A stretch of DNA of 47,892 bases, from the IMG/VR virus record IMGVR_UViG_3300045996_000711, positions 1 to 47,892 of that record; one strand, given 5' to 3'. The stretch is from a virus. Position numbers and translations under genes: made by a program. Under the pieces are notes generated by a model. That model had not been told where the DNA came from. It did no database searches and worked only from the letters and a program-made list of their open reading frames with translations. This document shows, piece by piece, positions 5,511 through 46,091 of the stretch (positions within the stretch are counted from its first letter, which is position 1; each line of letters begins with the position of its first letter).

Positions 5511-5756
5511 CTATCGCTTGGTGATCATGGATCGAAGTATCCGGCGATATAGCCGTTCGGCGGCCTTTATCAGCCTTTCGTCAGATTGCCAATGCCAGTG
5601 ATAATAGCCATCTGATTCGTCGCCCTTTTCAGTTGGGTACTTCCTGAGAAGCTGGGCCGTTGCTTCGCCCCAAGCCGCAGCCTTTCGGGTGAAGTAGTGC
5701 CGGCGTCGCGTGGGCGCGTAATAGGCTACCCGCTCTCTTCGTTCAATCGCGGGCAT
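5511..5756 (-). CDS. Hypothetical protein (81 aa)
   Basis: ATG at 5756 preceded by GAGGGGGAG. The longer ORF-track version lacks an RBS. Confidence 0.5.
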   Translation of the reverse strand: MPAIERRERVAYYAPTRRRHYFTRKAAAWGEATAQLLRKYPTEKGDESDGYYHWHWQSDERLIKAAERLYRRILRSMITKR

Positions 5757-5758
5757 CC

Positions 5759-5935
5759 CTACTCCCCCTCTGTCTTGGGTGGCGGTGGGAGCATTTGTTT
5801 CCCGTTCCAGATATCCAAGGCGAATATCACACTTGCCGCTTGATCCGGTGTTACATCGGCTAAGCGAGCAATCTCCCTCAGCCAATCGGCGCAGCGCTGG
5901 TCGAGCCTTATTTTCACGTCAACGTGTGTGTCCAT
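5759..5935 (-). CDS. Hypothetical small protein (58 aa, below the ORF-track cutoff)
   Basis: Hand translation: MDTHVDVKIRLDQRCADWLREIARLADVTPDQAASVIFALDIWNGKQMLPPPPKTEGE. RBS GAGAGGAAG. Confidence 0.45.
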   Translation of the reverse strand: MDTHVDVKIRLDQRCADWLREIARLADVTPDQAASVIFALDIWNGKQMLPPPPKTEGE

Positions 5936-37701: not shown

Positions 37702-38360
37702 GCTGACCTCTTAGCCCGATTTTGCGCCATCTTATCCCGAAAGGCCGGGTCATTCCACCGCGCCTTATTTTGAGCCGACCTAAGCGCCCTAAGCTCAGGA
37801 GTATAAGAGCGCTTGATTGACTCACTCATCTGGGCAGCCAATTCAGGGTTTTGCCAGTTCTTCCGAGAGGCTTCGCCACGCTTTTCACGCAGCTCAGGAG
37901 TGTAGGAACGCCGGATGGATTCGGCCATCTTCGCCCTAGTCTTAGGGTTACTCCACGTCTTCTCGGAAGCCTTTCGCATCGATTCAACGTGGGCTGAGCT
38001 CTTAGCAATCCCGCTACGCCTCTTGGAGGCCTTCTCACGCGCCTCGTCCGACCACTTTACACCAAGGGGCGATCCGGCGATAGGTGCCTTGTTGTAATCG
38101 CATCCGGCGTCAATATGGAACTGCTCACGCTCAATCAGTGAGTCACGGCGGCAATACTCAAGAACGGAAAACTCAAAAGACTCTGAGCCGTAAAGATTCC
38201 AAGACTTCTGGAGATGGTCGGAATGATGAGTCCCTTTCTTCAGCAGGCTTCTATGCGCTGCCCATCGCTGGATAAGCCTCACAGCGCTTCCTACATAACG
38301 CTTGCCGTTACGCAGGTTCCTGATCTCATAAATACCTGAACCTTCTAGGTCCATCCCCAC
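37698..38360 (-). CDS. GIY-YIG homing endonuclease (second copy)
   Basis: 220 aa. GIYEIRNLRNGKRYVGSA...RWAAH...N. Duplicated SxxRSYTPELR modules. Sits between terL and the protease. Confidence 0.85.
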   Translation of the reverse strand: MGMDLEGSGIYEIRNLRNGKRYVGSAVRLIQRWAAHRSLLKKGTHHSDHLQKSWNLYGSESFEFSVLEYCRRDSLIEREQFHIDAGCDYNKAPIAGSPLGVKWSDEAREKASKRRSGIAKSSAHVESMRKASEKTWSNPKTRAKMAESIRRSYTPELREKRGEASRKNWQNPELAAQMSESIKRSYTPELRALRSAQNKARWNDPAFRDKMAQNRAKRSA

Positions 38361-45057: not shown

Positions 45058-45636
45058 TTAACGACCGCCAAAAGCCTTATAGGCCTTCGCTAGCTTGATG
45101 TCGTATTTGTTGGCTGAATAGCCGGAGCCGTTATACCCGAAGGCGAATCCGGCCCAATCCTTGCGGCGCAACTCATCGTCCAGATTCCGGCCCTTTACGT
45201 AACCGATAAACGCATCCAAATGATCGCGCTCTGATCGATACATGGCATTTATGAATGACTGAAGGGACGAATAGCCGCACACCTTCCAGTTAAAGCCCAT
45301 GATCTGAAACTTTCCATAACTGGCTGATTGTAATGCGGCTTCTCGGTCTAGACTGACGGCCTGGGCGAGCCGGCGATGCTGATGCTGGCCGGTCGGCCCG
45401 TATAGTTTCCGGTCCCAGCGCGCGCTTGAAATGTTGGGATGAGAAGCCCTGAACTTACCCTTGGTCAGTCGATCAAAGATATGGGCTTCAAAGAGAATGA
45501 CAGGTTCGCCAGTGGGGAGAAAGCCATCGCCCTGAGACTCTACTTCAGCCACAGCCTTGATAGCTGCCGCTTCGCAGTCAAGCTCACGGGCTTTGTCTTG
45601 GTAATCCTGTTCAGTAAGCTTCGGCTTTTCTGCCAC
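45058..45636 (-). CDS. Endolysin, N-acetylmuramidase (DUF3380) family
   Basis: 192 aa (GTG start; RBS GGGGGTGA). AIKAVAEVESQGDGF...ILFEAHIFDRLT...YGKFQIMGFNWK...DWAGFAFGYNGSGYSANKYDIKLAKAY. Confidence 0.85.
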   Translation of the reverse strand: MAEKPKLTEQDYQDKARELDCEAAAIKAVAEVESQGDGFLPTGEPVILFEAHIFDRLTKGKFRASHPNISSARWDRKLYGPTGQHQHRRLAQAVSLDREAALQSASYGKFQIMGFNWKVCGYSSLQSFINAMYRSERDHLDAFIGYVKGRNLDDELRRKDWAGFAFGYNGSGYSANKYDIKLAKAYKAFGGR

Positions 45637-45691
45637 AAGTCACCCCCTGCGTTCCATCAAGGCTATCACAGTCAATGGGTTGTGAAAAGTG

Positions 45692-45779
45692 TGGTGCCGC
45701 CGTCGGGAGTCGAACCAAGAGGGTATCCCCTCCGAACCTTCAGGTTAAAAGCCTGATGCTCTCCAAGAGCTTCAGCGGC
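45692..45779 (-). tRNA. tRNA-Lys(UUU)-like gene with a 16-nt hairpin insertion in the T stem
   Basis: Acceptor GCCGCTG/CGGCGGC plus ACCA. D arm GCTC-TTGGA-GAGC. Anticodon arm TCAGG-CTTTTAA-CCTGA. The T arm becomes TCGGG-TTCGACT-CCCGA only if 45716-45731 (AGGGGATACCCTCTTG) is removed. Confidence 0.55.
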
Positions 45780-45799: not shown

Positions 45800-45969
45800 T
45801 GGCGCTTGCGGACCGGGCTCGATACCGGCTGGTCCTGAGCTTGCTGGCCTAGGGGCCTGCTTGTGAAGTCCATCACTTCCGTCCTCTCCTTTTAGGTTGC
45901 AAGGAGCGCTCATTTAACGATGGTGACCCGCTTCCGTCACGCTGCATGTCCCTCCACGCTGCCGCAAGC
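45800..45969 (-). ncRNA. Structured ~170-nt RNA closed by an 8-bp acceptor-like helix with a GCCA 3' end
   Basis: GCTTGCGG (45962-45969) pairs with CCGCAAGC (45804-45811), followed by G-CCA. T-like arm GCCGG-TATCGAGC-CCGGT. At least four internal hairpins. Confidence 0.35.
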
Positions 45970-45984
45970 AAAATAATTAGACTA

Positions 45985-46091
45985 TGGCCTTCGTGGGATT
46001 CTAACCCACAGTACGCTGGTCCTCCGGTTCAATCGCCGTCCAGCTTCGCCTTTTTTGACTTTCAGCGTCTAACACATTCCGCCAGAAAGCC
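45985..46091 (-). ncRNA. tRNA-like element (Leu-like D arm, canonical T arm, no recognisable anticodon helix; 107 nt)
   Basis: Acceptor GGCTTTC/GAAGGCC. TGGCGGAATGTGTTAGACGC resembles the class II tRNA-Leu D arm. T arm GTGGG-TTAGAAT-CCCAC. The central 54 nt do not form a 5-bp/7-nt anticodon arm. Confidence 0.4.

Follow-up and report, generated by a model that had tools for sequence, protein, structure and literature searches.

The locus at 45692-45779 on the minus strand of the window, the whole stretch of 47,892 bp that was analysed, raises the question of what a tRNA gene can be when its T stem is broken by a hairpin. No part of tRNA is more invariant than the 7/5 acceptor/T-arm helix, which is read by EF-Tu, RNase P, the CCA-adding enzyme, the T-loop modification enzymes and the ribosome. 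In this gene the T-stem part of that helix is interrupted by 16 nt, for which a preliminary description had proposed an unusual extra arm, a small intervening sequence or a decayed gene.

Structure of the tRNA-Lys(UUU) gene

ARAGORN, one of the checks proposed in the preliminary description, called a tRNA-Lys(ttt) of 88 nt in the window. The Rfam tRNA model RF00005 matched the same gene at 40.7 bits against a gathering score of 29 (E = 2.6e-5 for the whole window), and the match spans model positions 1-71 with 25 nt skipped in the T arm as a local insertion. Read from 45779 to 45692 on the minus strand, the gene runs GCCGCUG AA GCUC-UUGGA-GAGC A UCAGG-CUUUUAA-CCUGA AGGU UCG (GAGGG-GAUA-CCCUC-UU) GG UUCGACU CCCGA CGGCGGC A CCA, with the 16 nt in parentheses, and is made up of the following parts.

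45692-45779, minus strand: branched tRNA-Lys(UUU) gene, 88 nt including the encoded A73-CCA (ARAGORN; Rfam RF00005; family covariance model R1 at 102.8 bits, a match by construction, since R1 was built on eight founding sequences that include the window)
45773-45779, minus strand: 5' strand of the acceptor stem, pairing with 45696-45702 (ARAGORN; two compensatory pairs in the family)
45758-45770, minus strand: short D arm, GCUC-UUGGA-GAGC, with G18 and G19 present and A rather than U at position 8 (ARAGORN drawing; family alignment)
45740-45756, minus strand: anticodon arm, UCAGG-CUUUUAA-CCUGA, with the anticodon UUU at 45747-45749 (ARAGORN; two compensatory stem pairs in the family)
45733-45735, minus strand: lower part of the T stem 5' strand, U49-C50-G51, pairing with 45703-45705 (invariant in the family, as set by the search pattern)
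45717-45732, minus strand: 16-nt branch, composed of the hairpin GAGGG-GAUA-CCCUC (45719-45732) and the 2-nt linker UU (45717-45718)
45715-45716, minus strand: upper part of the T stem 5' strand, G52-G53, pairing with 45706-45707 (fold; alignment)
45703-45714, minus strand: T loop UUCGACU (45708-45714) and T stem 3' strand CCCGA (45703-45707) (ARAGORN; Rfam)
45692-45702, minus strand: acceptor 3' strand CGGCGGC, discriminator A73 and CCA (ARAGORN drawing)

The body of the molecule is otherwise tRNA-like. The acceptor stem has 7 bp (GCCGCUG/CGGCGGC) with a single wobble, U6.G, and the variable loop AGGU is of ordinary length at 4 nt. The anticodon stem has 5 bp and the 7-nt loop is fully standard (C32 U33 UUU A37 A38, with a purine at 37). 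The acceptor stem with one G-U pair, the encoded ACCA, the D arm with GG and the perfect anticodon arm with loop CUUUUAA and anticodon UUU had all been reported before and were read again here on the minus strand, the anticodon assignment in agreement with ARAGORN.

The T arm is the exception. The 7-nt T loop is present and a contiguous 5-bp T stem is absent, the 5' strand being split into 3 + 2 nt by the 16 nt. Read across the 16 nt, the T arm becomes UCGGG-UUCGACU-CCCGA, with five Watson-Crick stem pairs. For the 88-nt gene ARAGORN draws instead a 20-nt "variable loop" and a T stem CUUGG/CCCGA with two mismatches. For the 72-nt sequence with the 16 nt deleted it draws a perfect cloverleaf, as expected from the earlier statement that the T arm is canonical solely when the segment is removed, and the minimum free energy fold of this sequence is likewise the cloverleaf, with T-stem pair probabilities of 0.82-0.99.

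Position and fold of the 16-nt branch

The branch consists of a 5-bp stem, a 4-nt loop and a 2-nt linker, and leaves the 5' T-stem strand between tRNA positions 51 and 52. The hairpin within the T stem had been noted in the preliminary description and is seen at 45719-45732. From the window alone the placement of the insert is ambiguous, 45716-45731 and 45717-45732 being equivalent. The branch of one homologue, L214, begins with A (UCG|AUGGC...), so the branch site lies between positions 51 and 52, the 51a position, and the insert occupies 45717-45732; the size of 16 nt and the T-stem site given earlier thus stand, and the ends given then, 45716-45731, shift by one nucleotide.

The hairpin is about 90% paired in the predicted ensemble, with a probability of at least 0.9 for nearly every pair in the nearest-neighbour model. 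A perfect stem of at least 5 bp occurs in 1.0-1.6% of shuffled or random 16-mers. The hairpin sequence occurs once in the window, and an origin of the insert from a repeat or mobile element was ruled out on that ground. In the same nearest-neighbour model the split T stem is disfavoured by 4.6-7.1 kcal/mol in every member of the family described below, with pair probabilities of at most 0.06. If the stem forms, tertiary contacts, which this model ignores, would have to offset the energy penalty. Inspection of the Lys gene for a bulge-helix-bulge motif found none; the hairpin abuts G51 directly (0 nt), with only UU on its other side.

A family of branched genes in viral contigs

IMG/VR viral contigs were scanned with the pattern GGTTCG-N12-24-GGTTCGACTCCCGA, which is the T arm of the window with the GGTTCG repeat and any 12-24 nt between. 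Eight contigs matched, and the gap was exactly 16 nt in all eight. Seven of these (L214, L215-219 and L221) carry homologous tRNA genes, 88-89 nt long in alignment; the remaining contig, L220, has two adjacent T-arm-like hairpins, a different structure, and was rejected as a member. In the seven homologues, as in the window, the insert is exactly 16 nt long and lies at the same site (51/52). The earlier statement that no phage tRNA was known with an insertion at this position no longer holds, with seven more present in IMG/VR contigs.

The family contains three different branch hairpins, all perfectly paired: GAGGG-GAUA-CCCUC-UU in the window, AUGGC-GACG-GCCAU-UU in L214 and GGGAC-GACG-GUCCC-U(C/U) in L215-219 and L221. 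The branch helix is thus paired in 100% of the family sequences, with compensatory changes at four of its five pairs, as counted over only three independent branch sequences known. Length and shape of the branch are strictly constant and its sequence is free. Two further compensatory pairs are found in the acceptor stem and two in the anticodon stem, and the other stems are intact in all members. Over the whole family alignment the split-T-stem structure has 99.4% of cells paired and eight pairs in which both partners have changed; this degree of pairing and compensation was reached in none of 500 shuffles, and controls with slid partners were 38-50% paired. In each member a perfect tRNA results when exactly these 16 nt are taken out. 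Because the search pattern prescribed both halves of the T stem and the T loop, these parts are invariant, so that the T stem yields no covariation evidence across the branch and pairing there rests on complementarity and tRNA homology.

The common body comprises an acceptor strand (A/G)CCGC(U/A)G, a short D arm, A26, UCG, the branch, GG, the T loop UUCGACU, CCCGA and A73. The variable loop is AGGU except in L221 (CGGU), and the 3' end is CCA except, again, in L221 (UCA). Family members score about 103-116 bits with covariance model R1, compared with at most 44 bits for ordinary tRNAs. Of the tertiary core, G18 and G19 are present. Position 8 varies, with A in the window, U in L214 and C in all the other members, and the D loop is only 5-6 nt long.

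The anticodon loop is the part that changes most freely. On near-identical bodies the anticodons UUU, CUU, CAU and GAU are found, in the loops CUUUUAA (window), CACUUAA (L214), UACUUAA (L215, L218 and L219), UUCUUAA (L217), UACAUAA (L216) and UAGAUAA (L221), and the differences among the closest members cluster at loop positions 33-35. A33 takes the place of the near-universal U33 in five of the seven distinct sequences. G18G19, the T loop and U36-A37-A38 are kept in all members; since U36-A37-A38 is constant, all members would read ANN codons (Lys, Met or Ile).

The contigs of the additional members are high in GC; in them the tRNA gene directly precedes a RecT- or RecE-type gene or is close to a repressor-like gene, and the RecT of these contigs resembles that of Xanthomonas, Ralstonia and Klebsiella phages. 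The family therefore occurs in two unrelated phage contexts, a lysis leader in the window and a RecT/RecE early region in the high-GC contigs, and the presence of one branched body in unrelated phages and different operons implies horizontal transfer.

With seven homologues that carry a 16-nt insert at one site and show compensatory changes, the extra arm is a selected feature: conserved position, conserved size and a covarying stem show that the branch is maintained by selection. The comparison with homologous genes called for in the preliminary description thus found the branch kept in seven genes with compensating hairpin changes, which is not the picture of a degraded pseudogene. Among the three options offered at the outset the decayed gene falls away on these compensatory changes, and an extra arm and an excised sequence are not separable by sequence. 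The Lys gene represents a conserved and apparently undescribed tRNA architecture that is the product of neither chance nor decay.

Searches for further relatives

Exact and near-exact patterns for the anticodon arm and T loop, the D arm or the 3' half found no relative in IMG/VR, and a scan of JGI metagenomes for relatives of the Lys gene returned only an unrelated canonical tRNA-Lys (L034). blastn of the region, the 88-nt gene and the insert-free sequence against GenBank phages gave either no match or generic tRNA-Lys at about 81% identity. The branched family had no match in 50,697 GenBank phage records, the cultured relatives SOVA965, Rb1 and RSK1 are without a branched tRNA, and the conserved flank pattern was absent from GTDB genomes and IMG/VR. 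When synteny was followed outward from the endolysin and from the 74-aa gene upstream, phage relatives were reached, none of which has the Lys cassette. An 89-nt "tRNA-Arg" in L016 was rejected on the ground that it sits in coding-like sequence.

A generic scan for tRNA-Lys(UUU) used GGCUUUUAACC, then 18-41 nt, then GGUUCGANUCC. It returned 174 other matches with an 18-41-nt expansion, 168 of which have a contiguous perfect T stem; the viral matches have a long variable arm and the archaeal matches have intron-like inserts upstream of the T stem. The element in the window was the only tRNA-like match with a split T stem. RNAalifold, applied to the tRNA-Lys family with a variable arm, mis-paired the D and anticodon regions and did not call the extra arm, and was uninformative. 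The literature searched contained no description of a tRNA with a branched T stem.

Genomic setting

The window is a complete JGI contig, and its phage is of siphovirus type, with a large terminase, portal, major head protein, tape measure, RecT, HNH and SPFH protein. Its genes are typical of phages of Gram-negative bacteria, and its cultured relatives are only distant, the best match of its large terminase being that of Stenotrophomonas phage SOVA965 at 60%. The Lys gene stands immediately before the lysis region, where the following features are found.

45058-45636, minus strand: endolysin, a PF11860 muramidase, directly downstream of the leader (context)
45637-45691, minus strand: 55-nt leader between the tRNA slot and the endolysin start, identical in the relative L025 (alignment)
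45800-45969, minus strand: module 2, a tRNA-framed structured RNA with an 8-bp terminal helix GCUUGCGG/CCGCAAGC, an abutting 5-bp hairpin and a GCCA end
45985-46091, minus strand: module X, a tRNA-framed structured RNA (Rfam tRNA, 28.1 bits; homologue in L212 with compensatory changes in three helices)

Neither a sigma-70-like promoter nor an intrinsic terminator was found near the tRNA gene, and for this reason the Lys gene is probably co-transcribed on the late/lysis transcript. The endolysin homologues reached by the walk are 92-74% identical and their flanks are common to the relatives; L030 carries a gene of the Phage_lysis family. The slot upstream of the endolysin is hypervariable and holds different tRNAs or tRNA-like RNAs in each relative. 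L026-29 carry Ser(GCU) and Ser(UGA), L001 has nine tRNAs and SOVA965 has four, L025 has a cloverleaf whose D stem is 6 bp long and whose "anticodon" loop has only 5 nt, and in L030 and L035 nothing can be recognised as a tRNA. The Lys gene was found in none of the slots of the relatives examined. A codon-usage rationale for the gene was considered and rejected, AAA making up only 31% of Lys codons, with no demand signal.

The stretch of roughly 450 nt upstream of the Lys gene contains module X and module 2. The two modules share one frame, in which a terminal helix of 7-11 bp has its 3' strand abutting a 5-bp hairpin, as in acceptor/T-arm geometry, around a variable core. Their terminal helices and hairpins show compensatory changes between relatives, and the module 2 hairpin of L031 is a textbook T arm (GGUGG-UUCAACU-CCACC). 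No copy of module X was found in IMG/VR. A related module 1 is present in relatives, also in the cultured phage SOVA965, and not in the window. The Lys gene is the last unit in an operon of tRNA-framed RNAs ahead of the lysis genes.

Interpretation and rival explanations

The reading we prefer, to which we give about an even chance of being correct, is that the element belongs to a small phage-borne family of tRNAs in which a 5-bp hairpin branches from the T stem at 51/52, is kept as a fifth arm, and leaves the tRNA able to be charged and to decode. The gene would be transcribed with the late/lysis operon and excised by the tRNA-processing enzymes of the host, with the branch retained as a fifth arm on a three-way junction in the T stem. 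The RNA would then be charged according to its anticodon and would supply Lys decoding during infection; LysRS, MetRS and IleRS take identity mainly from the anticodon and A73. The branch would reshape the acceptor/T-arm helix that many tRNA-binding proteins read, and its likeliest benefit would be escape from host factors that attack or sequester tRNAs. Confidence falls along this series, being highest for an RNA that is made and processed like a tRNA, lower for retention of the branch, lower again for charging by the anticodon, and lowest for altered recognition of the acceptor/T-arm helix. Outside the branch, the parts required of a working tRNA are kept: an acceptor stem of 7 bp, A73-CCA, G18G19, the UUCGACU T loop and an anticodon loop of 7 nt that contains U36-A37-A38. 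The fifth-arm reading appears weakened by A33 in most distinct sequences, by the presence of U8 only in L214 and by the very short D loop, and the predicted instability of the split T stem would likewise count against it. EF-Tu contacts the T-stem pairs 49-65, 50-64 and 51-63, and a helix at 51/52 could interfere with these contacts. The small number of independent hairpin types, the lack of a carrier among the cultured phages searched and the missing demand signal in Lys codon usage also count against it.

The main rival, which we consider possible but distinctly less probable, is that the RNA is a tRNA mimic that does not decode, its tRNA-like acceptor end and anticodon stem-loop serving off the ribosome as a decoy or sponge for tRNA-directed nucleases or tRNA-binding proteins, or as an element of transcript processing or stability. 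The same departures, A33, the loss of U8 outside L214, the small D loop and a split T stem that is thermodynamically disfavoured in all members, speak for such a mimic, as does the fast change of the anticodon positions on an otherwise constant body, and the window gene lies beside tRNA-framed RNAs unable to decode (modules X and 2, and in L025 the cloverleaf with its 5-nt "anticodon" loop). However, the Lys anticodon loop of the window copy is standard throughout, all four anticodons fall within the ANN codon box, and the constant U36-A37-A38, A73-CCA, G18G19 and T loop are the needs of decoding and charging and go beyond those of a decoy. The most radical rival is that the 16 nt are a small intervening sequence, cut out after transcription with rejoining of the halves to a canonical 72-nt tRNA, the hairpin geometry being the recognition signal. 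The perfect tRNA left in every member by exact removal of the insert is consistent with this, a fixed length and shape with free sequence is the pattern of a structure-recognised insert, and the generic scan contained archaeal tRNA genes with short inserts near the T-stem region. It is nevertheless improbable, given a hairpin that has no bulge-helix-bulge and lies 0 nt from the T stem on one side and 2 nt on the other, phages of bacterial type (PF11860 muramidase, the Phage_lysis-family gene in L030, RecT/RecE and HNH-terminase), and a scan of the larger ORFs that gave no candidate for a ligase or an endonuclease.

The remaining two explanations make the gene less unusual and fare worse. A decayed or accidentally disrupted tRNA gene, with a recent 16-nt insertion in dispensable cargo, would suit the hypervariable slot upstream of the endolysin, and before the N12-24 scan the pattern and blastn searches of IMG/VR, JGI metagenomes and GenBank phages, which had returned no insert-bearing relative, also spoke for it. 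The seven homologues with three different, fully paired stems at one site, and the unbroken state of the other stems over all eight genes, make it very improbable, and we regard it as essentially excluded. The last explanation, a class II-type tRNA whose long variable arm is an ordinary one, follows the drawing by ARAGORN with its 20-nt variable region, and tRNA-Lys(UUU) genes that carry an extra hairpin in this region are indeed found in many IMG/VR phages. Such a structure requires an 8-nt unpaired 5' spacer and a doubly mismatched T stem in the window gene, which lacks the contiguous perfect T stem of nearly all comparison matches, and no family member has lost the UCG that precedes the hairpin; this explanation has next to no chance of being right and is the least probable of those weighed.

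Returning to the fifth-arm reading, a defence-evasion role for the branch, as suggested in the preliminary description, is plausible. In its furthest form, which is speculative and in our view rather unlikely, the branched body would be a defence-proof universal tRNA chassis. The extra helix would block immune tRNases and host factors that read tRNA shape, the synthetases would still charge the RNA, and phages would swap one or two anticodon bases (UUU, CUU, CAU, GAU) to replace whichever ANN-reading tRNA the host destroys; in the window this chassis would be the working end of the tRNA-framed RNA operon before the lysis genes.

A natural and conserved tRNA with an extra helix would mean that the acceptor/T-arm helix is far more tolerant than assumed, with consequences for tRNA engineering and orthogonal translation, or else that the RNA has left normal translation to serve another purpose. 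The 7/5 acceptor/T-arm helix is also read by at least one immune nuclease. The switching of anticodons on one body among closely related phages makes the question of why phages carry particular tRNAs testable against tRNA-targeting defence. If the 16 nt were excised, this would be RNA processing of a new kind, in bacteria or in their viruses.

Comparison with known systems

Class II tRNAs (Ser, Leu and bacterial Tyr) and the long-variable-arm allo-tRNAs have, like the Lys gene, a fifth helical arm near the junction of variable region and T stem. In both, this arm emerges between positions 45 and 48 from a molecule with a contiguous T stem, whereas in the Lys gene it lies 3 bp further on, inside the T stem at 51/52. 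Another comparison is offered by the tRNA-Lys(UUU) genes with a variable-region hairpin in IMG/VR (L043, L054, L058, L077, L080, L087 and L090), which share with the Lys gene a class I body, the anticodon UUU and a short hairpin followed by UU upstream of the T loop, and whose stems differ between members as in the branched family. In these genes, in contrast, the hairpin precedes a complete 5-nt T-stem strand, and the covariation of their arm was judged by eye only.

Archaeal tRNA genes with introns at non-canonical positions resemble the Lys gene in having short inserts (about 11-40 nt) outside the anticodon loop, removal of which gives a canonical tRNA. The archaeal introns are bulge-helix-bulge substrates, defined by a 4-bp helix between two 3-nt bulges where exon and intron meet, whereas the Lys gene has no such motif and belongs to a bacterial-type phage. 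No tRNA-splicing endonuclease is known from bacteria.

The T-stem irregularities in the review literature come down to one, the bulged nucleotide 51a of selC* tRNA-Cys and (8/4) tRNA-Sec (PMC7609411, PMC5389517). This irregularity lies at the same T-stem backbone position as the branch of the Lys gene, a coincidence that favours the fifth-arm reading; the irregularity is a single bulged nucleotide in an 8/4 acceptor/T arrangement, in contrast to the 16-nt stem-loop in a 7/5 arrangement described here. Both selC* tRNA-Cys and the minor (8/4) tRNA-Sec with the 51a bulge are reported to be functional in translation (PMC5389517, PMC7609411).

With respect to defence, tRNA-Lys(UUU) is targeted repeatedly by defence tRNases (PMC13056530), being cut by PARIS AriB (PMC11455837) and by a bacterial Schlafen (PMC13056530). 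A possible rationale for evasion through the T arm comes from the immune tRNase Cas12a3, which positions tRNAs by touching the backbone of the T arm as well as the acceptor stem and the CCA tail (PMC12851939). The tRNA-Lys of phage T5 is a phage tRNA resistant to a nuclease, PARIS AriB (PMC11455837, and eLife 85183 cited therein), and the published nuclease-evading phage tRNAs differ in the anticodon stem-loop (PMC11455837). The published evasion mutations lie in that stem-loop, and nothing ties the branch to a nuclease. The Lys gene and the T5-type nuclease-resistant tRNA-Lys are alike in being phage-encoded tRNA-Lys. In the T5 type the resistance lies in anticodon stem-loop substitutions, whereas in the window copy the anticodon loop is standard and it is the T stem that is altered, with A33 in some of its relatives.

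Structured RNAs Framed by tRNA-like Ends

Upstream of the branched tRNA, the 88-nt tRNA-Lys(UUU) gene whose T stem is split by a 16-nt hairpin, the window carries two tRNA-framed structured RNAs, modules X and 2. A third of similar kind, module 1, is absent from the window and present in relatives, among them the cultured Stenotrophomonas phage SOVA965 (L224). The positions are as follows.

Positions of modules X, 2, and 1
Window 45985-46091, minus strand: module X, a structured RNA recognized by its Rfam tRNA score and a homologue in L212
L212:2948-3075: module X homologue
Window 45800-45969, minus strand: module 2 (also in L025, L026-29, L030, L031-33, L035, and L038)
L025:1206-1378, L026:5267-5464, L030:665-787, L035:155-277, L038:3709-3873, L031 ~5665-5800, and L224 ~37733-37873: module 1

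Module X has a near-threshold Rfam tRNA score of 28.1 bits, and its anticodon arm is replaced by ~50 nt. Comparison of the L212 homologue with the window copy shows that the single-stranded parts are kept (UGGCGGAAKGUGUUAGACGCUGAAAGUC and the loop UUAGARU), and that three helices differ in sequence with complementarity retained. The 5' box of module 2, (A)GUUUUGCUUGCGG, is conserved. The module also has a terminal helix of 8 bp, which a 3' hairpin abuts, as well as a hairpin resembling a D arm and a core of ~30–110 nt that is variable, and it usually ends in GCCA (GUCA in L035). The helix is compensated in L038 (GCUGGCGAC/GUCGCCAGC), a canonical T arm occupies the position of the 3' hairpin in L031, and L026-29 carry the module in two tandem copies. 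The terminal helix of module 1, GGAUGG/CCAUCC, is likewise compensated, to GGACGG/CCGUCC in L031 and to GUGGAG/CUCCAC in SOVA965; its 5' hairpin (UGCGCA-GGCUGA-UGCGCA) is conserved and its 3' hairpin abuts the terminal helix.

L025, L213, and SOVA965 also hold tRNA-shaped genes that standard tools overlooked or mis-called.

Further tRNA-shaped genes
L025:1480-1552: "tRNA-Ala(cgc)" whose D stem has 6 bp and whose anticodon loop has 5 nt
L213:~2750-2842: tRNA-shaped gene with an 8-bp acceptor stem, canonical T arm, and expanded anticodon branch
L224:38979-39056 (SOVA965): unannotated 78-nt Arg(UCU)-like element without a D arm

Sequence Preceding the Branched tRNA in High-GC Contigs

In the high-GC IMG/VR contigs with homologous branched tRNAs (L215-L219 and L221), the 5' end of the tRNA is partly copied ~35 nt upstream of the gene (CCGCUGACAGC versus CCGCUGCAGC), followed by the hairpin CCGG-GAAAGA-CCGG and then the branched tRNA gene itself. 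The partial copy may be a leftover of duplication or recombination.

Other tRNA Genes and T-arm-like Hairpins

An AT-rich contig (L220:~770-840) places two T-arm-like hairpins side by side, AGGGG-UUCGAGU-CCCU and CGGG-UUCGACU-CCCG, for which ARAGORN made no tRNA or tmRNA call. In the anticodon arm of a bacterial tRNA-Lys(UUU) gene (L179:6591-6675), the 9-nt sequence TTTTAACCA is duplicated in tandem.

A class-I-bodied phage tRNA-Lys(UUU) family of 86–89 nt in IMG/VR (members L043, L054, L056, L058, L067, L076, L077, L080, L087, and L090) has a variable region extended by a short hairpin; the stems vary by member (GAC/GUC, UGC/GCA, CC/GG), and the loops are mostly GNRA-like. Clusters of two or three tRNAs of 84–91 nt, with UUU or CUU anticodons and long variable arms, were observed in four IMG/VR contigs (L041, L053, L070, and L071) and in a Burkholderiales MAG (L112), the latter with Lys, Met, and Cys tRNAs that each have a ~20-nt extra arm. 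These clusters may be allo-tRNA-like.
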